A stretch of DNA of 64,000 nucleotides. It comes from Saprospiraceae bacterium. Lineage in GTDB: Bacteria > Bacteroidota > Bacteroidia > Chitinophagales > Saprospiraceae. Location of the stretch: assembly GCA_016710625.1 (NCBI GenBank), contig JADJVK010000054.1:65040-129039 (forward strand). The letters are read 5' to 3'. The notes beneath the pieces were generated by a model. That model ran no database searches. It was not told the DNA's origin and worked only from the letters and a program-made list of their open reading frames with translations. Position 1 is the stretch's first letter; every line of letters starts with the position of its first letter. A program made the translations under genes and the position numbers. Shown here in pieces: positions 3,244 to 54,886 of the stretch.

Positions 3244-4203
3244 ATGAAAGCGATTGTTTTAAAAGATTTAGAAAATCTGAATTATGAAGAAATTGATAAT
3301 CAGTCAATTGAAGGATTCGTAAAAATCAAAATAAAAGCTTCTGCTTTGAATCATCGTGATGTTTGGATATCTAAAGGACAATATGCTGGAATAAAATTTC
3401 CAATGGTTTTGGGTTCGGATGGAGTAGGTTTTGATGATCAGGGAAAGAAAGTTATCATAAACCCTGGTTTGAATTGGGGCTCCAATGAAGCATTTCAATC
3501 GAAAAGTTATCAAATTTTAGGATTGCCAAATTTTGGTACTTTTTCAGATTCCTGTTGGGTTGCTCCTACTCAAATTTACGATTTCCCAACTCATCTTGAT
3601 GATGTTTCTGCTGCTGCACTGCCTTCGGCTGGTGTAACAGCCTATCGTTCCCTATTTTCAAGGGCAAAAGTAAAACCAACTGATAAAGTATTAATCTCTG
3701 GAGTTGGTGGAGGTGTTGCTTTGTTTGCTATGCAATTTGCAATTGCTTTAGGTTGTGATGTTTATGTAACATCAGGGCATGAATGGAAAATCGAAAAAGC
3801 TATATCAATGGGTGCAAAAGGTGGAAAAAATTATAAATCAGATAGTTATGTAAAGGAGTTTCAATCAGAAGTTGGTGGTTTTGATGTGATAGTGGATAGT
3901 GCAGGTGGTGATGGATTCTCCAATTTGGTAAAATTAGCAAATCCTGGGGGTAGAATAGTATTTTATGGTGGCACTAATGGAAATTTGAATATCAATCCTC
4001 AAATGGTGTTTTGGAAGCAATTGTCGATTTTGGGTTCGACGATGGGTAGCGATCATGACTTTGCTGAAATGTTGGCTTTTGTCAACCAATATAAAATTGT
4101 GCCAGTGGTCGATAGCATATTCGAATTAAAAGATTTTAAAGCAGCTTTTGATAAAATGAATAAGGGTGAACAATTTGGGAAAATAGTTTTTAGAAATAGT
4201 TAA
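3244..4203 (+). CDS. zinc-binding alcohol dehydrogenase / quinone oxidoreductase family (MDR) protein
   Basis: 319 aa. GroES-like N-terminal domain, GVGGGVALFAMQFAIALG Rossmann motif, ...FGKIVF C-terminus. Confidence 0.75.
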   Translation: MKAIVLKDLENLNYEEIDNQSIEGFVKIKIKASALNHRDVWISKGQYAGIKFPMVLGSDGVGFDDQGKKVIINPGLNWGSNEAFQSKSYQILGLPNFGTFSDSCWVAPTQIYDFPTHLDDVSAAALPSAGVTAYRSLFSRAKVKPTDKVLISGVGGGVALFAMQFAIALGCDVYVTSGHEWKIEKAISMGAKGGKNYKSDSYVKEFQSEVGGFDVIVDSAGGDGFSNLVKLANPGGRIVFYGGTNGNLNINPQMVFWKQLSILGSTMGSDHDFAEMLAFVNQYKIVPVVDSIFELKDFKAAFDKMNKGEQFGKIVFRNS

Positions 4204-5738: not shown

Positions 5739-7682
5739 TTATCTAGAAAGATTGATTTTTTCCGTGATTACTTCAGTTCCATTATCAATAAGTAGTAAGT
5801 AATTATCATTGGATAAAGACTCTGGTAAATGCAATTCAACTGTATGATATCCGCTATTCAAATAAGAAATTTGTTGATATACCAATTTTCCAGAATTAGA
5901 TAATACTTTGAAAGATATATTTTGATTCTTTTGGACAATAACCTGCATGTTCAAATCTCCTTTTGATGGATTTGGGTATAAATTCAATACTCTGAAATTA
6001 TTCACAGGCCTTACAACTGACACAATATTAGAATAAAAATCGGAACCGTCGATATCTAAGGTTTTAATTCTATAATAACTTTCAAAAGTTGGATTTTTAT
6101 CAACAAATTCATAATTCAAGGTATGCAATGAATTTCCTGCCGCTGCAACTTCTCCAATATTTTCCCAATTGCTATTTGCCCCATCCTTTCTTTGAATTAT
6201 ATGTGTTTTTGTATTTAATTCATTTAAAGTTGACCATAATATTTTATTCGTATTACCTTCTTTTATAGCTTTTATTTCCACCAATTCTAATGGAAGAGAG
6301 GCAATTGAACGAAGTTGAACATTTTGGATGGTAAGGCCACCAGCTGTTAAAGTAGCAGAAATTGTTTTTGTTACATAAGCTGATTTAGTATATGTAACAG
6401 TAAATGTACCTGGGGTAACTTGACCTGTTGCATAATTACCATTGTAAATTGATAAAGTGCTATTCAAGGGGTCCGTATGATTAATTTTAACATCTACACC
6501 ATTTAATAATTGACCAGTCAAAGAGTCAGTTACAATGCCTTCTAAATAACAGGCATTTTTATAGTCAGGTGTTAAAACAAAAAGCTTTCCTGTATCTTGA
6601 CTCATAGATATACCAGCATTAGAGATATTGGTTACTAATAAATTACCTGATGGAAGATAAGGGTAAACTCCCCAACAGCCTTTAAAACCATTTCCTGAGC
6701 CATTAGGATAAGTATCATATCTTCCTACTTGAACTAGATTACCCGGTCTTGAGATATCAGTTATTGTGATTCCGTCTGTGTACCAAGAAGTTACAGCAAA
6801 ATGATCTTTGATGTAAGTATTGTGAACAATAGATCCACTTCCCGGTGTTGGTTGAATTTTATCTAATAAAGTGATATTTCCCAAATCACTGATATCAAAA
6901 CTTGCTAAATAGCTACCTGAGTTTTCATCTGTAGTAAATAAATAGTTTTTGTCATTAGAAGGCCAAGTATTGTGGCAAAAATAGGTGGGAGTTTGAAAAG
7001 TAGCCAAAGTTACTGGCGAATTTTTAACTGTAAAGTCTACTACTCTAACATTTGTTATTCCAGAATTTCCTAATTCTGCAGCATACATTATGTCATTATC
7101 AACATATCCATCGTGAATATATCTTGCAGTTTGCATTCCTGCAAAAACAGGATTGTAAGGATCAGTATTTAAATCCAAGGCTATTGCTCCGCCATTTGCT
7201 AATCCGGTTGCACCATATATATAACAATAACCCTTTGTAGTATCTACATGTAAAGAATGTGAACGCTTCAATTGATTTAAAATTCCACCATCTCCATGAT
7301 ATTTTTTAAAAGGGATAGATGGGTTTGGTAAATTTGTCAAATTTGCAATGCCTACACCACCATAACCAGAGGGAGTTGATCCTTCTGATGTTATATAAGC
7401 ATAATTTCCATATGTTTTGATTTCTCTCCAAAGGTTAGTAATTGTATCAGTTAGTTGCTGGATAAAGACTGGAGATGCAGGATTTGTTACATCCATCACA
7501 ACCATGCCATCAGCAACACCAACTAATGCATATTCTTTCCCATCTTTTGCAAACCCCCAAATATTTGCACAATATTTTCCGGGCCATTTCACCACAGAAT
7601 TAAAGGTGACATTATAATCTTGAGAAAAAATAGTATTTGATAGGAAAATATAAAGTACTAAGAAAAGTAATTTTAATTTCAT
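5739..7682 (-). CDS. T9SS-secreted protein: conserved N-terminal (beta-propeller-like) domain, CarboxypepD_reg-like domain, type-A C-terminal sorting domain
   Basis: 647 aa. Signal peptide MKLKLLFLVLYIFLSNTIFSQ. The C-terminus has the LYPNPSKG motif followed by a beta-sandwich tail. The N-terminal roughly 330 aa are paralogous to ORF 10804..13188. Confidence 0.7.
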   Translation of the reverse strand: MKLKLLFLVLYIFLSNTIFSQDYNVTFNSVVKWPGKYCANIWGFAKDGKEYALVGVADGMVVMDVTNPASPVFIQQLTDTITNLWREIKTYGNYAYITSEGSTPSGYGGVGIANLTNLPNPSIPFKKYHGDGGILNQLKRSHSLHVDTTKGYCYIYGATGLANGGAIALDLNTDPYNPVFAGMQTARYIHDGYVDNDIMYAAELGNSGITNVRVVDFTVKNSPVTLATFQTPTYFCHNTWPSNDKNYLFTTDENSGSYLASFDISDLGNITLLDKIQPTPGSGSIVHNTYIKDHFAVTSWYTDGITITDISRPGNLVQVGRYDTYPNGSGNGFKGCWGVYPYLPSGNLLVTNISNAGISMSQDTGKLFVLTPDYKNACYLEGIVTDSLTGQLLNGVDVKINHTDPLNSTLSIYNGNYATGQVTPGTFTVTYTKSAYVTKTISATLTAGGLTIQNVQLRSIASLPLELVEIKAIKEGNTNKILWSTLNELNTKTHIIQRKDGANSNWENIGEVAAAGNSLHTLNYEFVDKNPTFESYYRIKTLDIDGSDFYSNIVSVVRPVNNFRVLNLYPNPSKGDLNMQVIVQKNQNISFKVLSNSGKLVYQQISYLNSGYHTVELHLPESLSNDNYLLLIDNGTEVITEKINLSR

Positions 7683-8147: not shown

Positions 8148-10755
8148 ATGCGAAATCTGTTGCTCTTTATTCTGATTATTTCTGCCAATATACTGATTTC
8201 TCAAAATAATCAACATAAAAAAGTGCTAGACCATAAAGATTTGGTTACTTGGAACAAAATGGACCAAGTTCAAATCTCTCAAAATGGCAACTATGTACTT
8301 TATAGGGTGTTTAGTGAGATAAATGACCCCAAAGTGGTTGTTTATAACAAAAATAATCAAAAAGAATTTATAATCAATAGAGCAAGTGAAGCAAAGTTTT
8401 ATGGTGAAAAGTTTGTTGTCTTAAAAGTCAAAATTCCAGTTGATTCCCTTCGACAACTGAAAAGGAAAAAGACGAATGAAAATGATTTGCCAAAAGATAC
8501 TTGTTATTTAGTGCGATTAGATAGTTTTAAAATAGAGAAAATCAGTAATTTGAAAAGTTGGAAAATTATTGAATCTGATTCAGGAAATGCAATGTGCATT
8601 CAACTGGAACCCTCCAAAAAAGTAACACAAGATACGACCATTAAAAAGAAATGGAAACCTGAAAACAAAGAGAATGGTAGTAAGTTGATAGTTTTCCAAA
8701 ATGAGAAAAAAGAAACTTTTAATTATGTGAAAGATTTTAATATTGCTGACAAACAAAATGCTATTTTATTTCTAACAACAGGTGAAGATTCAATAAATCG
8801 AAATAAGCTTTACTATATTCCAGCAAATTCAAAAAATTTTGAACCCAAATTAATCGTAGATACCACTGAATCAATTAAAAACCTGACCCTTCATCCTGAA
8901 AAAAATTCCTTTGCTTTCTTACAAGATGCTGACACTAGTAAAACCAATATTAACCGAAAATATCAACTATTTTTATGGAAAGATAGCCAAATAAAAAGAG
9001 TTTCAGCGGAACATTTGAAAAATCAATCTTTGATTTTGTCAGATGCTGGCATTCTGCAATTCAATCCAAAAACGAATTATTTGTTGTATGCTGCAGCAAA
9101 ACCATTAGCGGTTCAAGATACCAATGTTGTACCTGATGAAATCGTAAATGTTGAAGTTTGGAATTCGCTGAAAGGAAAATTATATACTCAGCAAAATGTT
9201 GATGCAGAAAAAGATAAAAACAAAATTTGATGTATATATCAATAATGCATTGACAAACAATAATTTAGTAGGAATCAAAGGTTTGCTAAATTTACCCTCT
9301 TTATCACCAAACAAGCAATATTTATTGTGGTTCAATCCAATTGATACTACTTGGAATTCCTATCATATTGCTGATAATCAATTTGTTAAAATCACAAATA
9401 ACAAAGTTGCTACATTTTATGATCATGAGAATGACCAACCTGATTATCCAAATGTTTACGGAGTAGCAACTTGGCTCGATAAGGATGAAAATGTGCTGAT
9501 TTATGATGAATTAGACTTGTGGATGGTGGACCCATCAGGGAAAATGAGCCCTTATCGATTGACAAATGGAAAAGAAACTCATACAGAATATCGGTATATT
9601 CATTTAGACAAAAAGAATAATTATTTAGTTGGAAGAGATTCGATTTTGTTACATACTACTGATAAAAATACCTATGAAGAAGGTTATGTTTGGTATTCCA
9701 TATCAAAAAATCGATTTTATCCAATTGTAAAAGAGAATTTGAGTTATTCCAGCAGAATTTATTTTGATAAAAAACTGAAAACTGCCCTATTTGCAAAAGA
9801 ATCATTTTTGCAATATCCAGATTTACAATTGGTTAATAATTTGAATTTTAATAAACTTGAAAAAATTTCAGATGTTAATCCACAACAAAAAAATTACAAT
9901 TGGGGAACAATAGAATTGGTGAAATGGATCGATCCAGATGGTAAATTGACAAAGGGTTTGTTAGTGAAACCTGCTGATTTTGACCCAAATAAAAAATATC
10001 CTATGATTGTCAATTTCTATGAAAAAGAAAGTGATAATATTTTGAGACATAGAGCTCCTGAGCCGAATAGGTCTTCTATAAATTATGTATTTTATGCCAG
10101 TCGTGGCTATGTGATTTTCAATCCAGATATTACTTATAAAATAGGCTATCCTGGTAAAAGTGCTTTAGATATTGTTGAGTCGGGAGTGAAATATATTTTA
10201 TCCAAAGGATTTGTCGATCCCAATAGAGTAGGGATTCAAGGTCATAGTTGGGGTGGTTACCAAATTGCCTACATTCTCACCAAATCCAAGATGTTCAGAT
10301 GTGCTGAATCGGGTGCACCTGTAGTGAATATGACCAGTGCTTACGGCGGAATTCGATGGGAAACTGGCTTGAGTAGGATGTTCCAATATGAAAAGGCACA
10401 AAGTAGGTTGGGAGCAACACTTTGGGAAAATCCAAAATTGTATTTAGAAAATTCTCCATTGTTTGAAATGGATAAAGTAACTACTCCAGTTTTAGTGATG
10501 AGCAATGATAAAGATGGTCATGTGCCTTGGTATCAAGGTATTGAATATTTTATGGCACTGAGAAGATTGGGTAAACCAGCTTGGTTATTGAATTACAATG
10601 GAGAGCCCCATTGGCCAGTGAAATTACAGAATAGGATTGATTTTAATATTAGAATGCAGCAGTATTTTGACTATTATTTGAAAGACTATAATATGACTTC
10701 ATGGATGAGTGAAGAGATGAAGTCATATGAAAAAGGAATCAATCTAGGATATTAA
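8148..10755 (+). CDS. S9-family serine peptidase (prolyl oligopeptidase / acylaminoacyl-peptidase-like), split by one frameshift at about 9196-9230
   Basis: ORFs 8148..9230 and 9196..10755 overlap by 35 nt in different frames. Together they give a signal peptide, a beta-propeller, and an alpha/beta-hydrolase domain with GHSWGG (Ser), a DKDGHVP Asp and an EPHWP His. Confidence 0.75.
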
Positions 10756-10803
10756 TATTTTGAAATATAAAATTTATAGTACATTTGTTCAAATTAAATA
10801 AAT

Positions 10804-13188
10804 ATGAGAGTATTTTTTACAATTTTTATGACATTCATTTTTGTACAATTATTTGCACAAAATTATAATTTAGTACAAAGATCATCTGTTAAATACCCTG
10901 GTCAAGTACTTGCCAATGTTTGGACTTATGCTGCTAATGGAAGAGAATATGCTTTAGTTGGAGCTTCCAAAGGAATGAGTATAGTGGATGTGACCAACCC
11001 AGACCAACCCAAAGAAATCAAACAACTTTTGGATGGAATTGATAATAGTTGGAGAGAAATTAAAACATATAAAAACTTTGCCTATATCACTACTGAAGGT
11101 GGTGGAGGTTTAGCAATTGCTGACTTATCTAAATTACCAGATACAATAATTCCATTTCATAAATATACAGGAGACAAAGAAATAATTGGAAAGTTGGGTA
11201 GGATACATGCTTTGCATGTAGATACTACAAAAGGGTTTGTATATTGTTATGGTACGACTGGAGTTGCCAATGGTGGTGCAGTGATTTTAGATTTAAATCA
11301 AGATCCATTCAATCCAACTTATGCTGGGGAATACAACGTGAATTATATCCACGACGGATATGTCGATAATGACACTTTATATGGCTCTCATATCTATCAA
11401 GGCTATTTTTCAGTGATAGATTGTAAGGACAAAAAGAATCCAAAAGTACTTCAAACCACTTTGACGCCTACTAAATTTACTCATAATACTTGGTTGGATA
11501 ATAGTAAAAAATACTGCTTTTCAACGGATGAAAACAGTGGCTCTTACTTAGGATCATTTGATATTTCAGATTTGGATAATATCACCTTACTGGATAAAAT
11601 CCAACCTACTCCGGGTTCAGGATCCATAGTGCATAATACATATATTAGAGGTGATTTTGCAATAACCTCTTGGTATAAAGATGGTTTTACAATAACTGAC
11701 ATTTCTCGTCCTCAAAATTTAATCCAAGTTGGTCATTTTGATTTATATCCTCAAGGTTCTGGAAATGGCTTTGAAGGGACTTGGGGTGTTGCTCCTTATT
11801 TGCCATCAGGTACGATAATTTGTTCGAATATCAGAGAAACCATCAATAATCAGAATGCTGGTGTGATGTATGTAATGACTCCAAATTATGTAAAAGCAGC
11901 ATATTTAGAAGGGAAAGTAACTGAAAAAGGAAAAGGTACACCTATTAATGATGTGAAAGTGACAATTGCTGGAGGTGATCCATTATCTGATGGTTTGACA
12001 GATTTGTCTGGTAATTACAAAACTGGTCAATATTCTGTTGGCAAATTTGATGTTACATTTACAAAACAAGGCTTTGGACCAAAAACAGTCAATGTGGAGT
12101 TGAAAAGGGGAGAAGTGGTAATATTAAATGTGGAATTGGAATCTTTAGGTGCTATCACTTTAAATACTGCTGAGAAAATAAATAACAACCCTTTACCAAA
12201 AGGAAAGTTTTTATTTAAAAATGCAACTGCTACTTATAATGGAGAAACAGATGCAGCAGGTTATTTGAAAATAGATGCTTTTGCAGAAGGTGACTATGAA
12301 GTGATTGTTGGAGCTTGGGGATATGATTATTATTATAATCCAAAATTAACTATTAAAAATGGAGATGCTCTGAATTTCAAATTAGATAAAAAATATAGAG
12401 ACGATTTTGTTTTTGATTACAATTGGTCAGTTTCTGGAACAGCGCCAAGAGGTATTTGGGTGAGAGATGTACCAGTAGGAACTATATATCAAAATAGCCA
12501 GATCAATACTGGAAATGATGTAGCTAACGATTTAGGAGATAAATGTTTTATTACTGGTAATGGTGGTGGAAATCCGCAAGATGATGATGTGGATGATGGA
12601 GAGACAATTATAACGAGTTCAGCTATGGATTTAACTACTTATACTGACCCATCTGTGAACTATAGTACTTGGTTTTTTGATGGCGGACCTTTCCAAAATC
12701 CAAATGATTCATTGATAATTTCGATTTCTAATGGTTCTCAAGTTGTTAATTTAGAAGTGATTACAAAATCTGAAAGCAAATGGAAAGCAAAATCTTCAAT
12801 AAAATTGAAAGGATTACTTCCATTAACAAATAACATGAAAATAATCGTAAAAACTGCTGATATAAATCCTGGACAATGGGTGGAAGCAGCTTTTGATGAA
12901 TTTTCTATTACGGAAGGTTCAGTTGCGAATTTTGATTTAGAAAATTTTGTTTTTTCTGTTGCACCCAATCCATCCATCAACTATTTTTCAGTAAGATATA
13001 ATGTAGGAATGATGCATCAACCAACGCTGAATATCAGTGCAATAGATGGAAGAATAATGCAAAATATTCGTTTAGAAAAATCGAGTAATGAACTAAATTT
13101 CGGGGAGAATTTACCAGCTGGAATTTATTTTATTAGTCTTCAAGACCAACAAAATATTATAAAAACAGTAAAAGTTGTAAAAAAATAA
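10804..13188 (+). CDS. T9SS-secreted protein, paralog of 5739..7682, with an extended middle region and a type-A C-terminal sorting domain
   Basis: 794 aa, with a signal peptide. N-terminal domain aligns with 5739..7682, including the identical block ITLLDKIQPTPGSGSIVHNTYI. C-terminal APNPS...GIYFISL...KTVKVVKK. Confidence 0.7.
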   Translation: MRVFFTIFMTFIFVQLFAQNYNLVQRSSVKYPGQVLANVWTYAANGREYALVGASKGMSIVDVTNPDQPKEIKQLLDGIDNSWREIKTYKNFAYITTEGGGGLAIADLSKLPDTIIPFHKYTGDKEIIGKLGRIHALHVDTTKGFVYCYGTTGVANGGAVILDLNQDPFNPTYAGEYNVNYIHDGYVDNDTLYGSHIYQGYFSVIDCKDKKNPKVLQTTLTPTKFTHNTWLDNSKKYCFSTDENSGSYLGSFDISDLDNITLLDKIQPTPGSGSIVHNTYIRGDFAITSWYKDGFTITDISRPQNLIQVGHFDLYPQGSGNGFEGTWGVAPYLPSGTIICSNIRETINNQNAGVMYVMTPNYVKAAYLEGKVTEKGKGTPINDVKVTIAGGDPLSDGLTDLSGNYKTGQYSVGKFDVTFTKQGFGPKTVNVELKRGEVVILNVELESLGAITLNTAEKINNNPLPKGKFLFKNATATYNGETDAAGYLKIDAFAEGDYEVIVGAWGYDYYYNPKLTIKNGDALNFKLDKKYRDDFVFDYNWSVSGTAPRGIWVRDVPVGTIYQNSQINTGNDVANDLGDKCFITGNGGGNPQDDDVDDGETIITSSAMDLTTYTDPSVNYSTWFFDGGPFQNPNDSLIISISNGSQVVNLEVITKSESKWKAKSSIKLKGLLPLTNNMKIIVKTADINPGQWVEAAFDEFSITEGSVANFDLENFVFSVAPNPSINYFSVRYNVGMMHQPTLNISAIDGRIMQNIRLEKSSNELNFGENLPAGIYFISLQDQQNIIKTVKVVKK

Positions 13189-13189
13189 T

Positions 13190-13459
13190 ATGGACAAATC
13201 ATCAATTTATATGATCATTATAGGTGCCTTGGCTGGATATGTGGCAGGGAATCTATACAAAGGTGAAAACTATGGTTTACTTGGAAATATTGTAATTGGT
13301 GTGATTGGTAGTGTGGTTGGTGGATATATTTTCAGATTATTGAATGTGAAATTAGAAGCTGGTTTTATTGGCTCTTTAGTAACTGCGACAGTGGGTGCCA
13401 TCGTTGCATTATGGCTGATTCAAAAAATAAGTGGTGGAAGTAGAAGAGTTCGTCGTTAA
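13190..13459 (+). CDS. GlsB/YeaQ/YmgE family stress-response membrane protein (transglycosylase-associated)
   Basis: 89 aa, with Gly-rich transmembrane helices IGALAGYVAGNL...IGVIGSVVGGYIF. Confidence 0.75.
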   Translation: MDKSSIYMIIIGALAGYVAGNLYKGENYGLLGNIVIGVIGSVVGGYIFRLLNVKLEAGFIGSLVTATVGAIVALWLIQKISGGSRRVRR

Positions 13460-13563
13460 TCTAAATAATGCTTGATTTAATAGCTTTTATTTCTTGTTTT
13501 ATATTTGTAATTGAACTATTACAAACCTAAAAACAGTTAACTCTAAAAACTAAAATAAATTTT

Positions 13564-14124
13564 ATGGAATATTTCGAATCAATATTTGGTGCAGGCACCT
13601 ATTCTAGTTTACTGATTATACTCAATTTAATACTAATTGAAAGCTTATTATCTGTTGATAATGCGGCAGTATTGGCGACAATGGTAAGGAATTTACCAGA
13701 AGAACAGCAAAAGAAAGCATTGAGAATAGGATTGATTTTAGCCTATATATTCAGAGGAACTTGTTTGATATTAGCTGCTTGGTTAATAAAAATTGCTTGG
13801 CTAAAACTGGCTGGTGGCTTGTATTTAGTGTATTTATGTCTGCATTATTATTACAAGAAATATGTAAAACACAAAGAATTTAAAGAAGAAATCGAGGAAG
13901 AAATCCACGATGTAGAAGCAGTTACTCATTTGCCAATCGAAAAGAAGAATGTGCTTGGATTGAATAAATTTTGGTCAACTGTGTTGATGGTAGAGATAAT
14001 GGATTTAACCTTTTCGTTAGACAATGTTTTCGCTGCAGTTGCATTTACTGATAATATTTATTTGATTTGTACTGGTGTTTTCATTGGTATCAACAATGCG
14101 AATTGTTGCAGGATATTTTTGTGA
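13564..14124 (+). CDS. TerC family integral membrane protein; the 3' end is corrupted or truncated where the gene runs into the purine-rich tract
   Basis: Both SVDNAAVLA and SLDNVFAAVAF TerC motifs are present. The expected C-terminus can still be read in shifted frames at 14090-14215 (STMRIVAGYFCETE / MTKFPFLDEKLFFLFGFFRIKIRLSYF) before the sequence degenerates. Confidence 0.65.
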   Translation: MEYFESIFGAGTYSSLLIILNLILIESLLSVDNAAVLATMVRNLPEEQQKKALRIGLILAYIFRGTCLILAAWLIKIAWLKLAGGLYLVYLCLHYYYKKYVKHKEFKEEIEEEIHDVEAVTHLPIEKKNVLGLNKFWSTVLMVEIMDLTFSLDNVFAAVAFTDNIYLICTGVFIGINNANCCRIFL

Positions 14125-14215
14125 AACTGAATGACGAAATTTCCATTTTTGGATGAGAAATTGTTTTTCTTGTTTGGGTTTTTTAGGATCAAAATTAGGC
14201 TATCTTATTTTGTTT

Positions 14216-16100
14216 CGGGGGGGTTGGGTAAATATGCCCCCTTTTGTGGAATAAGACAACAGACCAGACAGTTTTTTCGGTTGAAGGAGGCATCTTTTTT
14301 TTCCCATCCATTCTATCATCGCGTATTTATTTTTCACGAGGGGGGGAGAGGAGAATTATGTGGGGTAGTGGGGGTTTTTATTAGAATGGTAGGTTATTTA
14401 ATTGTTGTAGCATTTCATGAGGGTAGAGGTAGAAATTTATTTAATTAATTGTTTTAGTAGAACAGCAAATATACAAAGTTAGTTTACAAATTACAAAAAA
14501 ACAAATATTTAAATTGGGAAAATTGGGAGTAGGGAGAATAGAGAGAAAAAAGGGATTTAAAAATAAAAGAAAAAATAAAAGATAACATAATTGGCAAGAA
14601 AAAATAATAAAAAAAAAAAAAAAAGTCCACTGGGGGGAAGGGTTTTGGGGGAAAAAAAAAAAGAGAAAAAATGGGGAGAGGGAAAAGAGGGTAGAAAAAA
14701 AAAAAGAAAAAAGAAAAAAAAAGAAAAAAGAAGAAAAAAAGGGAAAAAAAAAGGAAGATAGAGAAAAAAAAAGAAAAAAAAAAAAAAAAAGTTAAAAAAA
14801 AGAAAATAAGGAAAAGGGGTGAAAAATAAATTTTGAATATTTTTATGGGAGTTAAAATGGGGGGGCAACACGGTGGTGAAAAGTTTTTTTAAAAAGAGAA
14901 AAAAAAAAACAAAAAAAAGGGGTGGGAGACAATTGGGGAAAGTGAAGGGGCGGCGCGTGAAAGTTGGTGGGGGGGGGAGAAAAGAGTAAAGAGTAGAAAA
15001 GGAGAAGGGGAGGGGGGTGATAACAAATTTGGGGAAAAGTAAAAGTATTTTTTTGGGGAGATTTAAAAAAAAAAAAAGGAGGGGAAGAAAAGAAAAAAAA
15101 AAAGGGGGGGGGGGGAGAGGAGGGGGGAAAAAGGAGGGAGAAACGGAGTGTTAGGGGGGGGGGAACCAAAAAAAAAAAATAGGAAAGGAAAAAGAAAAAA
15201 AGGAAGGAGGGAAAAAAAAAGAAAAAAAAAAAAGAAAAAAAAAAAAAAAAAAAGTAATTTTTGGGGAAGGAGGAGGAAAAAAAGAAAAAAGGGGAAAAAG
15301 AAGAAAAAGGAAGAAAAAAGAAAAATTTGATTTTGAGAAAAGTGTGGGAATGTGTGAAAAAAAGGTGGCGAGGGGCAAGGAAAAAAAAGATTTGGGGGGG
15401 GGGAGGAGAAAAAAGAAAAAAAATTTTAGGGGAAGGGAAGGAGAAAAAAGAAAAAGGGAAAAAAAAGGAAAGGAGGGAAAAAAAGAAAAAAAAAATGAGG
15501 GGGGGGAAAAAGAAGGAAAGAGGGGGGGAAAAAAAGGAGAGTTTACAGAAAAAGAAAAAGGGAAAAAGAGGGGGAGGAAAAGTGAGGGGGGGTTGTTTGG
15601 GGGGAAAGGGGGGGGGGGAGCCGATTTGGAAATTTTTGAGAAAGTGTTTGCGTAAAAGGAAAAAAGGGAAAGAGGGCAGAGGAAAAAGTTGTGTATTGGG
15701 GTGGGGGAAAAGGGGGAGGGAGGTGGAGGGGGGGGGGGTTTCAGGGAGGGGGAGAGAAGGGGAAAGCAGGGGGGTGGGGGAGGAAAAGAAACGAATTGGG
15801 AGGGAGAGTAAGGGGGGGGGGAGAGGGGGGGGGGAAGGGAAAGGGAGGGGGGTAGGGAAAAAGGGGGGGGAAAGGAAAAAGTTGGAAGAGGGGGAAAAAA
15901 AAAAGTAGGGGGACGGGGTGGAGAGGGAGGGAGAAAGGAAAAAAAGAGGGAGAGGAAAAAAAGTTAAGGGGGAAAAGTTAAAGAAAAAAAAAAAAAAAAA
16001 AAAGGAAGGTTAAAGGGGGGGTTATTGGAGGGGGGGAAAAAAAGGGAAAAAAAAATGGGGAAGGAAAAAAAAGGGGGGGGACTGGCTGGCAGGAAAAAAG
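14216..16100. other. anomalous low-complexity tract: G-rich degenerate sequence at 14.2-14.5 kb, then about 1.6 kb of almost pure purine (G/A) on the + strand. Probably an assembly or basecalling artefact; no credible genes.
   Basis: Direct reading shows long runs such as aaaaaaaaaaaaaaaaa and gggggggggg and virtually no T or C from about 14560 to 16080. Every six-frame ORF here is K/E/G/R-rich on + or F/P/S/L-rich on -. Confidence 0.8.
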
Positions 16101-16101
16101 A

Positions 16102-16485
16102 ATGTTGAGGAAAGTTCATTCCACTTTGGGTAACGGTTTTCAGGAAGTAATATATCAAAGAGCTTTAGCCATTGAAATGAGAATAGCCAATTTAAGTTTT
16201 TCTAGAGAACTTGAAATGCAAATTTTCTATAATGGAGAGGATATTGGTACAAGAAGGGTTGATTTTTTGGTGGAAAATGAAGTGTTGGTAGAGCTTAAAT
16301 CGCTAGTAGCCTTAGAAGATGTCCATTTAGCACAAGGATTAAATTATTTGGTAGCATACAAATTAGAAAAAGGCTTGTTGATAAACTTCGGAGCTAAAAG
16401 TTTAGAAATAAAAAGATTACGACATCCACTCAATAAAATGCCCAACACGATTCCGAGTAGACAATCCGGAAATCCTAAAATCTAA
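16102..16485 (+). CDS. GxxExxY family protein, 5' end truncated by the anomalous tract
   Basis: 127 aa. GFQEVIY matches the GxxExxY motif, and DFLVENEVLVELKS gives the family-typical spacing. The N-terminus starts abruptly at the edge of the junk tract. Confidence 0.55.
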   Translation: MLRKVHSTLGNGFQEVIYQRALAIEMRIANLSFSRELEMQIFYNGEDIGTRRVDFLVENEVLVELKSLVALEDVHLAQGLNYLVAYKLEKGLLINFGAKSLEIKRLRHPLNKMPNTIPSRQSGNPKI

Positions 16486-16592
16486 TAAATCCAAATGCAG
16501 ACAAAAATTGAGAAAGGAAATAACAAGTATATTATTATCTATTTACAAATATGAATTGTATATTTATTAAATATATTGAAACTAAATAATCA

Positions 16593-17177
16593 ATGAAAAA
16601 AAATGTCCTATTTATAATATTGTTATACCAAACATTTATAATTAATAGTCAAACCCCACAACATGTATGGGATTCATTGATTAGTAATTACGAACGAAGA
16701 TACAATATGGAATTGACAAAACGTGATACACTACTCATTGATGAATATATTTCAAAATCTAATTCTGATAATTCTACATTTTTTGATTCAATTTTAGTTA
16801 GTAACTTATACAGTGAACAATTTAAAAAAGTATTTGCTATAAGAATAATTGACCAAAATATTTTATTCAATAAAATAATAAAATCATTATCATTCAACCG
16901 TCCTTTTTCTGAAAATAACATTTACAGTTCAGAAAATAACCCAATTTATGATGCAATTATTTTAAATGAAGTAAACATTTCGAAAATCTCCAATTTTATC
17001 CTTAAAGAGAACTATTTAGATAATTGTGATTTTTTAAATATGAAAAGTAAGTTAGAGATTAGGAGATTATCCAATATTTTAAAAGAATACTTAAGTCAGG
17101 TTAAAGTAAATAAGCATACAAATAATAAATGTAAAAATAAGAATTTGAGCATTTTGAAAAATATAAACCCATTTTAA
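16593..17177 (+). CDS. hypothetical secreted protein (N/K-rich)
   Basis: 194 aa. Signal peptide MKKNVLFIILLYQTFIINSQ. It sits in AT-rich local context and I recognise no family. Confidence 0.4.
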   Translation: MKKNVLFIILLYQTFIINSQTPQHVWDSLISNYERRYNMELTKRDTLLIDEYISKSNSDNSTFFDSILVSNLYSEQFKKVFAIRIIDQNILFNKIIKSLSFNRPFSENNIYSSENNPIYDAIILNEVNISKISNFILKENYLDNCDFLNMKSKLEIRRLSNILKEYLSQVKVNKHTNNKCKNKNLSILKNINPF

Positions 17178-17340
17178 ACAGCCTTACACTTCCACTCTTC
17201 ATTTTAGGTATCTTATTTGCATTATATATTTCATAATTTTTATATTTTATTAATATTTGAATTTAATTTGTTGTAATTCAGTATTTTATAATATAAATAT
17301 TAGTTGTAAAGCAATTTATTATTGTTTTAAATTAACTATT

Positions 17341-20300
17341 ATGAAAGCAATTCTAACCTTTTTTGTATTATTTTTTTCAGTGAATTTATTTTCTCAAAAT
17401 TCCTATTTAGCTTATGAATCATTTGATGGATCAGCTGGATCTGCTCTAAATAGTGGTTCCAATGGTCAAGGATGGGGATCGACTTGGGAAGTACAAAATG
17501 GTGTTATCGCTGGTTATCTTTTTGATAATAACAGCTTGACTTACAATAATCTAAAGACAAATGGAAATAAACTTTCTGGAGGATATCAATATGTAACTTC
17601 TGGAAGAAATTTAGATTATCAAGATGGAGGAGATTTTGATGATTACGTAACAGGTGGTGATGCTATTGGTAGTACTGCTGGAACGACCCTTTGGGTTAGT
17701 GTTTTATTGAACAAACTTTCTAATAATAATGAGCCCATTTTTTTAGATTTACATAATGGAAATTTGAGCTGGTGCAACAATTGTACTACCAATAAAATTG
17801 GATTTGGCTACTTCGGTACTGCTTCAAATGTAAATAGTGATAAAAGATGGTCCATCAGGATTGGGAATACAGTTTATAATTCCTCAGTTTCTTGTGCAGT
17901 TAATTCCGCTACATTATTGGTACTGAAAATTACTTTTGGAGCCAACAAAACAGATTTTGATCTTTATGTGAACCCTACAACTATTGGAAATTCAGGAACG
18001 CCAGCTACCACATCCTTATCTCAATCTACTTCAGAACTAATAAGAATCAAATCACTAGCCCTATATTTAGGTGATAATGCGAATAATGGTTATGCTGATG
18101 AAATCAGGTTTGCTAAAACTTATGCAATTGCTACAGCAGATCAAAATGTAGCTATCAATTTGCCACCCATTGCTCGATTTTCATATTCTCCTATTTCTGG
18201 TCAGGCACCTGTAACTGTATCAGTAGATGCTTCCTCATCAACGGATCCGGAAGGAAATCCATTGACATATTCTTGGAATTGGGGGGATGGAACGCCCAAC
18301 TCAACCAATCCAGTAACAACACATACCTATGCCCCAAATATTACTGGATTGATTACCATTGAACTAACTGTAAAAGACAATTTTAATTTAAAGAATTTTA
18401 CCAACAAAACAATACCTATTTATTTGCCGGGTACTAATTATTTCCCATGCCAAAGCTCCGCAACTTCGTTGAGTGAAGCTACATGTAGCCAGAATAATGG
18501 GAAAGTTAGAATCAATGCAGGAATTGCATTGAATCCTACCTATTCGTTTAAAAATGGTAGTGGAATTGATATGCCATTGATCAATGGAAATGAATTTCAG
18601 AATTTAGCTGCTGGAAAATACAATGTAACAGTAACAGGTTCAAATAGTTGTAAAGATATTTTTACATTGACAATGACGACTGATTCTTCTACTTGTCCAG
18701 GATGGTCGCCCAATATGTGTAAAATGGCAATTGGAGTGAATGTAAATGGCTTATCTGACTGGAACTGGGAACATGCTTTTGTGAATCGTTACAAACATGT
18801 CAGAGAAGATTTAACAACTTTTCACGATGGATGTAATTGCTGGGATTCTAACGTTAGTAGCCAAATTAAAGTAGATGAAAATGGCTACCCAATAGGATTG
18901 CCACAAATAACAACTGCATCTAATGCAACAAAAGTTCGGTTTATAATTTCTGCTGATGCAGGAAATCTGAAACCCAACGAACAATATGTATTTTTATATG
19001 ATGGCATCGGGACTTTCACATTGAATGGAGCAGATATTGTGAGTAACACAAAAGGTAGGATGTTGTTTAATGTGCCAGCCACATCTGGAAACATTTGGTT
19101 GGATGTATCTTATTCGCAGCCAGATGATTATATTAAGAAATTTTCGATTGTTGAAAGCATCTGAAGAATTTATTGACTTAAGTACGAATACTTTTAATAC
19201 GACATTTTTGAGTCGATTATCTCCATTCAAAACTATCAGATTTATGGATTGGGGATCTACAAATGGGAATAAATTGACCAAATGGGAAGATAGAAAATTA
19301 CCAACCCATAGAACATATTCAGGGTCGAAAGGCGTTCCATATGAAATGATGATTCAATTAGCAAACAAAATCCAGAAAGATGTTTGGGTTTGTGTTCCTC
19401 ATTTAGCAGATAGTAATTTTGTAGTTGAAATGGCAAAATTATTTAAAAATAATTTGAACCCAAATTTGAAATTATATCTGGAATATAGCAATGAAGTATG
19501 GAATTGGCAATTTGAACAAGCCCAATACAACAACTTAAATCGTCCTTTGAATATCAATTATGGTAGAGCTTATGGAGAAAAATCTAAACAATTATTCAAA
19601 ATATGGCAATCTGTTTATGGAGCTGAGATGAATAGAGTAGTGAGGGTAGTCGGACTGCAAGGAGGTTATAATTATCTGAATGAGCAAATTATGTCTCAAT
19701 TAGCTGATAATGATTGGGATATGGCATCTTTGAGTTACTATTTTGGGTTGGACCATTCTGCTTCTGGAAATCCAGTTTTAAATGCAAGTTCAACAGGAGA
19801 AGATGTGAATAGAAATGCAAGAAATTTATTTTTTGGAACAGGAAATTGGTGGAATAATGTTAAACAAGATTATAGAACTATAAAAATGTTTGGAAAAGCG
19901 ATATCAAGTTATGAAGGTGGACCACATTATACTGATTTTCAAACACATCCGTATCAGCATGCTATGTATGATGCTCAATATTTGCAAAGTATGTATAGAA
20001 TGTATGATGATGTGTTGGATTCTATAAGAGCAATGGGTAATCAATTGGCAATGTCATTCACCTTATCTGGCGTACAAGAAAGTGTGTATGGATCTTGGGG
20101 ACATCTTCCAGATATTTATATGAATCCACCATACAAAACAACTGCTCCAAAATATCAAGCAGTTTTAGATAATTCTTGCTTGACTTTCAATGACTTATAT
20201 CATGGGCAACCACTGGAATTTTATGCACCAAATGTGGTTGCAAAACCAGGGGATACGGTATGTTTAGAAGTGAAAGTGAAAGATTTTATCAATATAACAA

Positions 20301-21160
20301 GTGGTCAATTAACAATGTCATTTGATACAAGTGTAATGAAATACTTGTCCATTAAGCCTGGAAATATTTTAGGTGTTTCTACTGGAACATTTGGGACAGT
20401 TCCTAGTTTGGTGAATAGAGGAAAAATTACAATGGCTTACGATGCTCCAGCTGGAAGTTTACCGGATGGTATCACTACTTATGATGGTGCTATTTTTTGT
20501 AGAATTTGTTTTAAGGTAAATAATTATGTGGCACAAGGAAAATTTTCCCCAATTGCTTTTGACGGTTCATTAACAAATATCTTTTTTGAAAACAAAGGCG
20601 GAAAAGTAGATTTTAAAAATACTGATGGTAAAGTATTGATAGATAGTAAATTGAGTGTCAATGAAAATCTTATTTTTGAGGTTCAACTAAAAGATAAAAA
20701 CAATGCTGAATTAAGTTGGCTCAATCTTTATGCTAAAAATGCATTTGGATTTGTGGTAGAAAAAAGTAATGATGGCGTAAATTTTACTGCAATTTCATTT
20801 GTTGAAGCCAATAAAACAAATAGTAATATCTACAATTTTATAGATAGTAATTTGAGAAATGGGCAATATTATTATAAGATAAAAATGATTCTTCAAGATC
20901 AATCTTATAATTATACTGAGGTAAAAAGCATCAATGTTTATCAAGATAACGAAATCGTAATTATCCCAAATCCAGTTTTAAATGAATTTAGTGTACAAAT
21001 TGAAAATAAATTACAACCATTTGAAATTTGTAATCAACTAGGTCAAGTAGTGAAATCTGGTGAGTTTATTCCGTCTGTAATCAATGTAAGTGATTTGATT
21101 TCAGGATTTTATTATCTAAAAATCAATGGTTCAACGACGAAATTTATAAAAGTCGATTAA
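17341..21160 (+). CDS. large T9SS-secreted multidomain protein (PKD domain, possible glycoside-hydrolase-like TIM-barrel region, cohesin-like domain, type-A CTD), split by a frameshift at about 19070-19164
   Basis: ORF 17257..19164 has its signal peptide at the M at 17341 and a PKD motif (PVTVSVDASSSTDPEGNPLTYSWNWGDGTP). ORF 19070..21160 overlaps it in frame +1 and ends IIPNPVLNEFSV...GFYYLKINGSTTKFIKVD. Confidence 0.6.
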
Positions 21161-50071: not shown

Positions 50072-53000
50072 AGTGATTTCTAATATTTCAACAAAGTTGT
50101 CAAGGTTTCCAATTTTTACAATATCACCAATTGTGTGTCCAATAAATGAAATTGCTAAAGGTGATTTGTAATATATATTCTGTATACCATTTTTAATTTC
50201 GTTTTTGCCCTGTTCGGTTTCAATTATCAAAAAAGTCAAATCCTTTCCATTGTTGTATTTTACATTAATTTTACTGTTAATTTTTACTTGATCAGTTAAT
50301 ACCTTTGTCGATACAACTTTTGTTTATCCAATACTTTGTATAATTTCATTGTCTTTCTCTATATCTATAAAAGATGTTTGTAAAACATATTCTTCTAATA
50401 ATTCTATGTCATCTGTAAATGCAGATGATATATTTGAATGACTTTTTAAACTATGATTAGACGATTCAATTTGTTTAATAAATGATATAAGATTTGTAGT
50501 TTCTCTTCTTGGGTTGTCCCACCAATTTGTACTCCAAATACGATGAAAAACAAAACCGTGGTCTTCTAATATTTTCTGTCGATGTCTGTCATACAAATAA
50601 GCTTCTCTGCTTGAATGCCATTTTGCTCCATCACATTCTATTGCAATTTTTGGAACTCCTATTATTTTTGGGTCGTAAACTAAATCAATTCTAAATTCAG
50701 AAACTTTTACTTGTGGAAATAAATTTTTGTCGCCCAATTCATCAACAAGTCTTTGATAAACTTCTTCTTCAAAAGGCGATTCTAACTTATCTAAAACATC
50801 AGGATTAATCACAACACTTTTATTGTGTATTCAGCAAGTGAAGTTAAAATTGAAACTCTCAATTCATTATTACTTTCACTAACAGCTTTTGAATATGCTA
50901 AATAAGCATACAACACTGCTCTTTTGTTATTTGAGCCTTCTGTCGTCAAATATGATTTGTAGTCATAAAAACTTTTTCAGGTATTGAAGTACAAACATAT
51001 ACTTTGTATTTTGCTCTAGTAATAATTACATTTAAGAGTTTATATCCATTTGTATGGTTTATTGGACCAAATCTCTGAGCAAATTTACGGTCTTTTCCAA
51101 TACCATAAGTAGTTGATAAAATGATTACATCACGTTCATCTCCTTGGATATTTTCCAAGTTTTTAATGAACATTCCAGTTTCTTCTTACTCTTGAATCTT
51201 GCTGTTAAATTCTTCAAATTTTGTAAATTTTTGTCTCTCTATAATTTTTCTCTTTATTAAATCTCGTTGAGCAATATTAAATGTTGCTATACCAAGTGTC
51301 GGATATTCACCATTTGGTAATCGATTAATATTTTTGTCAATTATTGACAATACCATTTCTGCTTCTGCTTCGTTTGTATGTTCTGAAAAAGTACCATTTA
51401 CTTGAATATATTTTATTGGTACATAATCAAAATTTGCTGGCAAAGGTTTTAACCTTTGGTCGTAAAAAGCATAATTTGAAAAGTCAATTAAAAAAGGATG
51501 CCTTGACCTGTAATGAAAATCTAAATGTTGTTTATCAAATTTTAGTTCTGTTCCAAATTCAAGTAATGATTCACAAGAAAGCAATAAGTTATCTCTATCT
51601 ACAACAATTTTCTCTTCTTCAATATCATCCTCGTCTTCAACTTCTCCATCAAAAACTTTGCTGAAATAATTTGATGGTGGCATTTGATGTTCATCGCCTG
51701 CAATAATTATTTGTTTACCTTTCAAAATCGCTGGCAAGTTATCTTCAAGTCGTAATTGACTGGCTTCGTCAAACATTACAATGTCAAAATAACCATTCAT
51801 TCCTTTAAACAAGTTACTTGCAACATCTGGTGAAGTTAAAATTATTGGAAAGAAACTTGTAAATAAATCGGAATCATATTGGAACAATTTGTCTTAATGA
51901 AAGACGTTTGAATCTTGGACTACTTCTTTTATTGTATAAATTTTCTACAGATAAATTACTATTACGTTGCTCAAAATCTCTAGATTTGTCAATCTGTTTC
52001 GAATACCAAAAATCTTTAATATATTTTAATTGTTCCCTCTCTACACTTTTTAATGTTGTGTCTAATTCAATGTGGTCATTTTCGTTTATAGGCAAATCTA
52101 TATTTGCAGATGAAAGCAATAATGAATGCAAATAATGAATTAAAAATGTTTTACGCCAATTTTCTTTGCCAATTAATTCGTTTACAATTGCTTTATCATC
52201 TGTATTTAAAGAATTGAAAAATTGAAACCACCTAAATTCAATTGAGAAATTGTCTTGTTCAGAATCAAAATATTTATTCTTTTTGGATATTGTACTTTCT
52301 ACTTCTGAAATGTATTTATTTAGGTCATTAAATTTTGGTTGTTCCGAAATCCAATTATCCGTATTAATTTTTTTTGTTAAATAGTTAACTTTTTCTTGAA
52401 GAATTGGTAAGTTTTTTAATTCCATTTCACTTGGGCTTGTTTGTAGCAAACTCAATTTCTGAAACTCTGATTGAATTTTAGAATCAAATTCATTTTTTAT
52501 TGCTTCTATTTTTGCAAATACTTCATCAAAAGACGCAGTATTTTCTGTGTAGCTTTTTGCAAAGGAATATGTAAAATTTAGGTCTTTATGTGTGGTTAAA
52601 TTATTTTTTAACTTTTCAAAATCAGAAATTAAATCGCTTTGAAGATTTGAAAAATTGTTTTTTATTTCAAGTAAGTGCTTTTGAAATTCATTAGAATTTT
52701 GAGAATTATTTATTTCTGTATTTAATGACTGAAACTGATTTGATGATTCGTTTATATTTAAAATCAATTGAAGATTAAAATTATCAAATTCAGTTTCTAT
52801 TTTTTGATTAAAGTAATTCTTTACTCTATTTAATTCTGATTTGTAATAGTTTAAAACATTTAGTTTTTCAGCTAATGAATCTTTAAAATCTGCATTGGGA
52901 AAATCCTTTGCATTTTTAATTTCTACTTCCAACTTCTCAAAATGTTTTTTGAGTGAATAATGGTCTGCAATAGTTTCCTTTTTTGCCTTTGAGAAAATAG

Positions 53001-54886
53001 AAAAGAATTTATAGCTAAAACTATTGATTTTAGTTTGGTCTTTTATTTCTGCATTATTTTGTTCTTTTCAAAATTACATCAATTGTTGAAATAATATTTG
53101 TAATTACTTTCTTGGTTATTTAGTTCCAAACTACGGAAATTGGCGTAGCTAATTTTTGTTGTTTGAATTAACTTTTCAATTTTGATTCATACGAAATAAT
53201 TTCTGAAATTAATTCAGTTATTGACTTTATTTGCTTTGAAAAATCAGCCTTCCTTAAATCAAAATATTCAGTTTTATTCGCCTCTAAAAGTTTTTTTATA
53301 CTTTCAACTTGCAGTTGATAATTATCAAAATCATTGTTTATGTTCTGCTTTATCAAATATGGATTTTCGCCTATTAATTTTTGAGAATTCAAAAAAGAAC
53401 ATGATTGAATTGGCAAATAATCAATGTGTGTTTGATTTCCTTTTTGAATTAAGTCAAGATAATTATTTAGTTCTTTCGTAGAATATTCAAATTTCTCTTT
53501 GTCAATATTTAATTTTTGAGATTGATTTTGGCTTTTATTTTCTTTCAAATATTGCCCTACAATATTTGTCCAATTTTTTGAACCTAAAATTTCTTGACCA
53601 ATTTTTTGATGTTTTTTGTTGATACTTGTGATTAAATTCTTCGCTTTTTGCAAAATCGTTTCTAACGATTCTTTGGAATAATTATAACGATATTTTTTAT
53701 ATTCATAATCATCAACTCTGTCTCTAACAGAATCAACAACGGTTTTTCTATCTTTTACAATGTCCCTAATTAATACAATATTGTTGTTTAATCCTTTTTC
53801 AATTAGAGCATTATGTAAAACTTCAAGTGCAGTTCTTTTTTCACAAACTACAATTGTCTTTTTGTTATTTTCAAGTGCATTGATAAGTACTGCTGTAAGT
53901 GTTTGGCTTTTTCCTGTTCCTGGTGGTCCTTGAATTAATAAATTTCGTTTGCTCTCTAACGAATGTAAGATGCTTTGTTGCGATGGGTCTGTTTCAACTG
54001 ATGAAATTGGTTGAAATGAATTTCCTTCTAAATCTTCAAGGTTTATTTCTTGTTCTTCGAGTTTTAAAAGCTCATCAAAGTCGTTAATTATATTTTGTTT
54101 TTGAACCTCAAATATTGAAAATAGACCACTAAAATCAATTAGTGAATTTGAAAAATTAAGTGGTAATTTTTCATAATGATTTTTATCTCCAATAGATTTT
54201 ATATTTTCAAGGTTCTTTTCAAAAGTTTGTTTTAAATCATCTGGTACAGATGTATTTATTGAATTGATTAAGTTAGTACAAATCTCAATTAATTCGCTTC
54301 TTTCAATAAGTCCATCATCAAGCATTTCACTTGGTATTTGGTCTATGGCTACATTTGCATCGCTTTGCAAATGATTTATCAAAACTTCGTTTATGTAAAT
54401 TGGGTCTTCTTCATTTCTTAATATTTCCCATGTGTTGAATTCTTTTGTTCTTTTGATTCGTAATGACCAAATCAGAATAGGTGCAACTGTCAATTTGTTA
54501 TCCGCTTTATCTCGTCTTGCTAAAATTGGAAAACCAAATCCAAAAGTATTTATTCCCTTTTCGGATTCAATTGCTTCTGTCTGATTGATTAGGATTTCAA
54601 ATGCTTTTGTAATTTTTACAAGTTGAGCCTGATCATCTTCATATAAAGAAAACAAGTCTGGTACATTATTCTTCCAACTTATTCTAAATTTTAAAATTTG
54701 TTGAGTTAGTAATTCGGAAATAAAATTATTCGGTATGTTTTTATCAATATGTGAAAGTCTATATAAGTCAAACTTATATTTTGATTTTGATGGTATTGCA
54801 TTTAAATGAACACCTCGACGGTTTCCTATCTTAAGTCTTCTTTGTAGTTCTATTAAGAATTTCTTTGTTAATTCCATATTTATCAA
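50072..54886 (-). pseudogene. fragmented giant SF1 (Upf1/DNA2-like, AAA_11/AAA_12) helicase with a C-terminal DUF559 restriction-endonuclease-like domain and a GreA-C-like tail
   Basis: 53168..54886: N-terminal region plus Walker A LIQGPPGTGKSQT. 51874..52932: N/K/S-rich linker. 51186..51887: motif II DIVMFDEASQ plus AGDEHQMPP. 50946..51173: motifs V/VI QGDERDVIILS, NVIITRAKYKV. 50324..50812: DUF559/Vsr-like IAIECDGAKWHSSREAYLYDRHRQKILEDHGFVFHRIW. An unlisted ORF at about 50072-50320 reads ...SPLAISFIGHTIGDIVKIGNLDNFVEILEITN. Confidence 0.65.

Follow-up and report, generated by a model that had tools for sequence, protein, structure and literature searches.

The interval from 14,091 to 16,109 (2,019 nt) of the 64-kb stretch of DNA analysed here (hereafter the window) is very probably a sequencing or assembly artefact and not part of the genome. 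The first-pass annotation, made from the letters of the sequence, had favoured an unpolished or low-quality assembly segment at this position. This reading is supported by the absence of the tract from independent contigs, the decay of its left flank, the coincidence of its right edge with contig ends and a 525-nt replacement that repairs the genes on both sides. Most simply, two accurate contigs that ended at ~14,090 and ~16,110 would have been bridged by low-quality sequence.

Direct reading of positions 13,500–16,700 bore out the existence and position of the anomalous tract, which had been placed at 14,130–16,100; its limits needed revision, as the damaged interval extends from 14,091 to 16,109. 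On the + strand, positions 14,603–16,109 (1,507 nt) comprise 742 A, 581 G, 155 T and 29 C, a purine content of 87.8%, whereas the mean purine fraction per 100-nt bin is 0.507 (sd 0.091) over the whole 64 kb. When the 64 kb were scanned, all 100-nt bins with at least 80% purine fell within 14,601–16,100. Runs of ten G had been judged alien to the genomic background, and long G and A runs are indeed confined to the damaged interval, which holds 11 G runs of at least 8 nt and 7 A runs of at least 12 nt, compared with none of either kind in the remaining 62 kb. GC skew peaks at +0.93 at 15,001–16,000, and seven canonical G-quadruplex (G4) motifs occur in the tract, compared with none in the rest of the window. 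The description of the tract as a “G/A-only” homopurine did not hold: it is purine-rich, with 184 pyrimidines (12%) in 14,603–16,109 and a longest pure-purine stretch of 79 nt. Its A runs are “sticky”, with a mean length of 3.33 in the junk versus 1.99 after shuffling, and the A:G ratio drifts along the junk, which is A-rich at 14,700–15,500 and G-rich at 15,700–15,900. The deposited sequence of the tract contains no Ns.

We compared the locus with ten independent metagenome contigs (ENA, Logan and NCBI) that share the neighbourhood and were found through an exact match to a neighbouring 89-aa protein. These contigs represent other strains, 1–7% divergent, and come from DNA samples different from that of the window. 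Two of them, L002 and L005, run across the site and lack the tract; where the window has 2,019 nt, they have 525 nt of intact sequence. Gene calls on L002 gave an intact TerC of 263 aa, a spacer of ~180 nt and then a complete PDDEXK_3 (GxxExxY) protein of 151 aa; L005 likewise encodes an intact 263-aa TerC, with the PDDEXK_3 gene ~180 nt downstream. TerC is also intact, at 263 aa, in L091 and in L089, a 174-kb JGI contig from a more distant syntenic relative. In a scan of genome contigs, the closest TerC was only 59% identical. By BLAST, L002 1–3481 corresponded to window positions 11,122–14,602 and L002 3495–4387 to 16,110–17,002 (98.9% identity, ungapped), and L005 gave equivalent matches; ~1.5 kb of the window is missing from both contigs, a net excess of 1,494 nt. 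The flanks of same-species contigs are 93–99% identical to the window, and two further contigs, L003 and L007, agree with L002 up to its position 3494. Synteny between terC and the GxxExxY gene had been proposed as a check, and L002 and L005 show only the 180-nt spacer there, with no tract. The segment is not chimeric, an option that the first-pass annotation had also raised: both flanks belong side by side, and their order and orientation agree with those in L002 and L005.

The left flank copies the sequence that these contigs carry, with increasing decay. The 5′ part of the TerC gene (codons ~1–175 of 263; 13,564–14,090, + strand; Pfam TerC, E = 1.6e-42) is intact, and as far as 14,090 the window is indel-free and 94–100% identical to four contigs in 50-nt bins. 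Base-by-base alignment to L002 placed the first indels at 14,092, beyond which the TerC frame is broken repeatedly; the alignment thus shows that the TerC C-terminus at 14,090–14,215 can be read only by hopping between frames, as had been noticed. Identity then falls to 94% at 14,100, 77% at 14,150 and 62–72% over 14,200–14,550, yet this low-identity sequence is still aligned, at z = 5.8–10.6 relative to composition-preserving shuffles. From 14,091 to 14,355 on the + strand, the TerC 3′ end (true codons ~177–263) is present in corrupted form and aligns with L002 2970–3234 (z ~10 versus shuffles), its identity dropping from 94% to ~70%. A corrupted copy of the 180-nt TerC/PDDEXK_3 spacer follows at 14,356–14,535 (+ strand), collinear with L002 3235–3414 at 62–67% identity (z = 6–10). 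The 5′ end of PDDEXK_3 comes next, at 14,536–14,702 (+ strand), as the first, left-hand corrupted copy, with a continuation alignment at z = 4.8 and a register-restricted z of 4.4–4.8. What had been dismissed as gibberish at 14,216–14,520 is therefore the TerC 3′ end and spacer in corrupted form, 62–72% identical to the original and significantly aligned with it, and the gradual decay described for this flank is, on alignment to independent contigs, that of a progressively corrupted copy of the true sequence.

This left-hand run is collinear with the template over ~610 nt (14,091–14,700), with the template detectable to ~14,700 (z = 4.4–4.8), and it preserves length, 562 nt of window corresponding to 562 nt of template. 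Its errors are mainly substitutions, with insertions and deletions roughly balanced; G is over-called (T>G 19, A>G 10, C>G 6, +G 8) and C is under-called. The last recognisable part of the left-hand copy, positions 14,626–14,652 (GTCCACTGGGGGGAAGGGTTTTGGGGGAA), stands in perfect register with the true TTCCACTTTGGGTAACGGTTTTCAGGAAG, which is the window’s own 16,120–16,146. Under a log-odds error model tuned to purine-biased miscalls and run with 150 control templates, the left block scored 31.7 versus 21.9 ± 1.7, and none of the 150 controls scored as high; in the register-restricted test of the left run, none of 300 controls did so. Outside the damage, TerC and its L002 counterpart differ in 14 codons (13 synonymous), and a 794-aa gene differs at 46 codons (35 synonymous, 11 not) with no indels. 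Beyond the damaged zone, then, the substitutions resemble ordinary variation between strains. A divergent recombinant TerC allele was rejected on the repeated frame-breaking indels, and mutagenesis of the kind produced by diversity-generating retroelements (DGR-like) was rejected as well, as all four bases are hit and indels are present.

A second corrupted copy of part of the same template lies at the right edge. Positions 16,008–16,109 (+ strand) carry the end of the spacer and the start of PDDEXK_3, including its ATG, and match L002 3394–3494. In the log-odds model, 16,008–16,105 scored 46.7 against L002 3394–3489, versus 21.4 ± 2.1 for the controls, none of which (0/150) scored as high. 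The alignment of this edge reached z = 5.0, with none of 2,000 shuffles as high, and under register restriction the run is detectable from ~16,003 (z = 8.7). Its substitutions are nearly all purine-ward (A>G 11, T>A 5, T>G 3). From 16,110 onwards the sequence is clean: the remainder of PDDEXK_3 (codons ~28–151; 16,110–16,485, + strand; Pfam PDDEXK_3, E = 7.5e-33) is intact, and the right flank differs from L002 by 10 mismatches in 893 nt, with no indels. The start of the 127-aa ORF annotated from 16,102 is artefactual. Together, the two edges show that template L002 3394–3531 (~137 nt, possibly more) is present twice, at ~14,515–14,652 and at 16,008–16,146, and that its copies flank ~1.1–1.3 kb of unalignable junk. 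The end of TerC and the start of PDDEXK_3 had been described as replaced by the tract; both are present, in corrupted form, and the template is partly doubled.

The interior, at 14,703–16,007 (no strand assigned), is template-free, purine-rich and aperiodic junk whose alignments to the template are no better than those of controls. From ~14,703 to 15,800, free and register-restricted alignments set against controls linked the sequence to the template in neither register. Farther along, a faint signal in the right-hand register emerges at 15,803–15,902 (z = 2.6 in the register-restricted test); for the larger block 15,803–15,952, one of 150 controls scored as high and the register-restricted z was again 2.6. 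We also considered several degraded passes over one template segment, a possibility prompted by a mixed-base island at 15,733–15,748 that matches 16,135–16,147, and set it aside on marginal support. The informative template tests were those at fixed positions and with restricted register, and the log-odds model with controls replaced permissive alignment. When the whole tract was aligned locally to the downstream template under permissive, purine-tolerant scoring, the score was 66.7, compared with 67.1 ± 5.1 for control templates. Likewise, a 59-nt probe of true sequence slid along the tract was indistinguishable from shuffled probes, with A-rich probes matching the junk everywhere. The 19 mixed-base islands were also compared by BLAST with all other parts of the window, and no hit was significant or collinear.

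Nor did the tract resolve into a recognizable repeat or element. Tandem Repeats Finder returned 46 overlapping low-scoring rows with periods of 1–67, mostly with 64–90% matches and none dominant, and no consistent repeat unit emerged; a microsatellite such as (GA)n or (GAA)n was rejected for want of such a unit. Apparent direct-repeat “families” in the tract are low-complexity self-matches of 63–76%. No inverted repeats were found in the tract, and no Rfam family matched it. Mirror symmetry did not rise above chance, the longest exact arm being 16 nt versus 19.7 ± 3.4 in run-shuffled controls. A mobile-element insertion was rejected on the missing inverted repeats, the presence of only low-complexity ORFs and a flanking duplication of at least 137 nt in which both copies are corrupted. 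An ORF finder confirmed the K/E/G/R-rich ORFs on the + strand (15,148–15,330, 15,261–15,908 and 15,344–15,655) and the F/P/S/L-rich ORFs on the − strand (14,557–14,871, 14,852–15,169, 15,151–15,378 and 15,964–16,158). These ORFs exist because a purine-only + strand offers no T for stop codons, while its complement lacks the A and G needed for them on the − strand. That explanation can be read straight from the sequence and matches the first-pass annotation, and we agree that the encoded “proteins” are meaningless.

The edges of the damage were then set against the ends of the independent contigs. L003 and L007, which belong to separate ENA studies, stop at the same base, L002 3494, and the window is clean from 16,110, which equals L002 3495; checking for a contig join at this coordinate, as had been suggested, thus placed the right boundary at the ends of two contigs to the base. 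For the left boundary at 14,091 the agreement with an independent contig is only approximate: the end of L004 lies at L002 2949, equivalent to window position 14,070, 20 nt before the onset of damage. L010 and L008 end at L002 3107 and 3197, L001 diverges at L002 3226, with a different gene after TerC, and L005 diverges at L002 3553. Contig ends and divergence points thereby cluster within ~600 nt (L002 2949–3553). Short-read assemblies of this population fragment here, probably owing to differences between strains in the gene content downstream of TerC. A second PDDEXK_3 copy that might have caused the break was sought in the window, and none was found.

The observations that mark the interval as an artefact are its absence from independent assemblies, a template-following flank with read-like errors, and the coincidence with contig breaks, which on the left extends only to within 20 nt. 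The interval most probably consists of ~2.0 kb of failed, uncorrected base-calling with which an assembler or gap-closer joined two accurate contigs. Read from left to right, this filler at first follows the template while its error rises from ~6% to ~38%, with G over-called and C under-called. It then loses the template and gives sticky A and G runs for ~1.1–1.3 kb, regains the template at least ~137 nt upstream of the point of loss, and adjoins the clean right-hand contig at 16,110. Its source may have been one or two single-molecule long reads with failed signal, and polishing presumably left it unrepaired, since accurate reads would fail to align to so corrupted a sequence.

As to the specific platform, nanopore-type signal failure is the most likely source, to which we give roughly an even chance. 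Nanopore base-callers are documented to give much low-complexity output: with Scrappie, 4.7% of the reads and 14% of the bases were of this kind (Jain et al. 2018, PMC5889714). The tract resembles such junk in being kilobase-scale, aperiodic and of low complexity, in bearing no relation to the template, in its sticky homopolymer runs, in lying next to sequence whose substitutions and indels are like those of reads, and in not being reproduced by independent assemblies. The published description (PMC5889714) does not, however, include an A/G-only composition or a flanking template duplication, and the flanks in the window are far more accurate than raw nanopore consensus. Our literature search found only general documentation of low-complexity base-caller output and no A/G-specific artefact. 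The template duplication does not fit a simple single-read stall. If instead two read ends had been concatenated, the right-hand piece would have to begin with same-strand G/A junk, which would be unusual. The interval also resembles the over-filled or duplicated gap edges left by long-read gap closing and scaffolding, in which accurate contigs lie on both sides of a poorer filler, template recurs on either side of it and one of the boundaries falls exactly at a short-read contig break; unlike those cases, it bears no Ns or other scaffold marks.

Among the rival explanations, the one that survives best is that two-colour Illumina junk reads, in which G is no signal and A is signal in both channels, bridged the two contigs. 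A two-letter A/G alphabet would be expected from correlated on/off signal in both two-colour channels, so the composition fits, as do clean flanks of short-read-like accuracy and a right boundary at a short-read contig break. The collinear left-hand run of ~610 nt, with its smoothly rising error, however, exceeds any Illumina read and would need several reads sharing the same errors; its balanced insertions and deletions are rare in Illumina data; and a de Bruijn graph is unlikely to chain at least 1.1 kb of aperiodic junk. We therefore consider this variant, which the first-pass annotation had offered as an example, very unlikely.

Less probable again is a real but non-genomic DNA molecule, a by-product of whole-genome amplification or library preparation, that was sequenced correctly. 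The presence of template on both sides of the junk does resemble some amplification chimeras. Such chimeras, however, join accurate sequences and show no graded, strand-specific and base-biased loss of identity over 600 nt, and high-fidelity amplification enzymes do not give 35% substitutions together with indels.

A real kilobase-scale polypurine.polypyrimidine insertion in the chromosome, with H-DNA/triplex and G-quadruplex potential and inactivating both TerC and PDDEXK_3, stands lowest in our estimate and has next to no probability. The tract is physically present in the deposited sequence without Ns, it concentrates the canonical G4 motifs of the window, and the comparison contigs, being from other strains, would by themselves be compatible with a strain-specific insertion. 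A real insertion, however, would not leave a 600-nt flank that is 62–94% identical, indel-ridden and G-biased while the next 3 kb are indel-free; nor would one expect two corrupted ~137-nt template copies at its edges, an exact end at the assembly-graph break of independent assemblies, or a tract of only 88% purine with no repeat unit and no mirror symmetry above chance. The tract shares with H-DNA- or triplex-forming polypurine.polypyrimidine mirror repeats a strand asymmetry over more than 1 kb, G-runs and G4 motifs, and differs from them in its 12% pyrimidines, its chance-level mirror symmetry, its want of a repeat unit and its absence from relatives. On composition (87.8% purine, longest run 79 nt) and on mirror symmetry (arm of 16 nt), an H-DNA mirror repeat was rejected. 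A genuine strain-specific purine-rich insertion arising from template-independent or slippage-prone synthesis, which also hypermutated ~600 nt of adjacent TerC and spacer, strikes us as hardly credible. If a genuine insertion were nonetheless present, it would give a bacterial chromosome a long segment of strong strand asymmetry with G4 and triplex potential, a remarkable non-B-DNA element.

The reading as an artefact is further borne out by repair of the locus. Swapping 14,091–16,109 (2,019 nt) for L002 2970–3494 (525 nt) restores a 263-aa TerC and a 151-aa PDDEXK_3, in frame at both splice points; the true 525 nt comprise the last ~87 TerC codons, the 180-nt spacer and the first ~27 PDDEXK_3 codons. 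In the deposited window, the TerC ORF covers positions 2–139 of 178 of the Pfam profile PF03741 (E = 1.6e-42) before it is cut off by the damage, and PDDEXK_3 covers positions 13–116 of 117 of PF13366 (E = 7.5e-33), with its N-terminus missing.

Elsewhere in the window, the many other frameshifts invoked in the first-pass annotation were confirmed in part: more than 8 kb of flanking sequence is essentially indel-free relative to independent contigs, whereas several other genes are disrupted. Compared with the same-species contig L092 and with homologues of 921–985 aa, the S9 peptidase gene (8,148–9,230 / 9,196–10,755) has a clean 161-nt deletion at ~9,220, bounded by A-rich microhomologies. 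A PKD-Cohesin-Por_Secre_tail gene is split at ~19,140, where the L089 orthologue is a single 1,271-aa protein, and a DUF4011-AAA_11-AAA_12-REase_MTES_1575 (helicase-nuclease) gene on the − strand (54,886–50,324) lies in at least four pieces. PDB matches to the stitched proteins for the frameshifts at 9,200 and 19,140 did not reach the junctions. The lesions at ~9,220, ~19,140 and 50.3–54.9 kb may be either errors or real pseudogenes.

Left uncorrected, the segment truncates TerC to 186 aa, deprives PDDEXK_3 of its first ~27 codons and adds at least eight spurious low-complexity ORFs. It could also seed reports of a false H-DNA/G-quadruplex “hot spot” and of K/E/G/R-rich or F/P/S/L-rich proteins. 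Segments of this kind can be recognized from sequence by the abrupt onset of indels, a template-following flank with decaying identity and base-biased errors, a doubled template at the edges and a boundary at the ends of independent contigs. The significance of the finding is thus one of data hygiene only.

The purine-rich filler between TerC and the PDDEXK_3 (GxxExxY) gene, at window positions 14,603-16,109, is not uniform, and its base composition shifts along its length. It is A-rich at ~14,700-15,500, reaching 82% A, and G-rich at ~15,700-15,900, reaching 62% G, while T is about five times as frequent as C throughout. If the raw data can be traced, this composition may help to identify the platform or base-caller responsible.

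Three further genes in the window are also interrupted. The gene encoding an S9-family peptidase is split on the forward strand into two ORFs (8148-9230 and 9196-10755). Comparison with a JGI contig of the same species, L092, aligned at window 9,077-9,224 and 9,219-11,026 with 95-97% identity on both sides, revealed that the window carries a clean, frame-shifting 161-nt deletion flanked by A-rich microhomologies. Homologues of this peptidase are each a single protein of 921-985 aa. The split gene could be a true strain-specific pseudogene or else a second assembly error. The CutA1 and S9 peptidase genes are bracketed by two oppositely oriented paralogues encoding T9SS-sorted LVIVD/CarboxypepD_reg/Por_Secre_tail proteins (5,739-7,682, reverse strand; 10,804-13,188, forward strand). 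Secondary BLAST matches place the paralogues at ~65-70% nucleotide identity over ~330-910 nt, varying by contig, and the same arrangement around CutA1 and the S9 peptidase is kept in L089, a more distant syntenic relative.

A large helicase-nuclease gene on the reverse strand (50,324-54,886) lies in at least four ORF pieces, which carry, in order, DUF4011 with the N-terminal part of AAA_11 (53168-54886), a coiled-coil stretch (51874-52932), the C-terminal part of AAA_11 with AAA_12 (51186-51887), and REase_MTES_1575 (50324-50812). Look-ups of window proteins found no same-species contig for this gene, which could likewise be a pseudogene or contain additional errors. In the third case, a forward-strand PKD ORF (17,257-19,164) overlaps an ORF on the same strand encoding Cohesin and Por_Secre_tail domains (19,070-21,160). 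Both correspond to one 1,271-aa protein in L089, and the N-terminal end of that protein shares 70% identity with window 17,341-17,811. The junction of the two ORFs (~19,135-19,160) probably contains a small frameshift near DDYIK|NFRLLKAS.

Finally, we compared the region 3′ of TerC across loci L001, L003-L005, L007, L008, L010, L089, and L091, using the coordinates of the reference contig L002, in which both TerC and PDDEXK_3 are intact. Short-read assemblies often break here, with five contig ends falling inside 600 nt. Strains also differ in gene content over L002 2949-3553 (window 14,070-16,168): after TerC, L001, L089, and L091 encode a different minus-strand gene in place of PDDEXK_3, and L005 departs from the reference at 3553, within the PDDEXK_3 gene itself. 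PDDEXK_3 looks like an accessory gene at the TerC locus.
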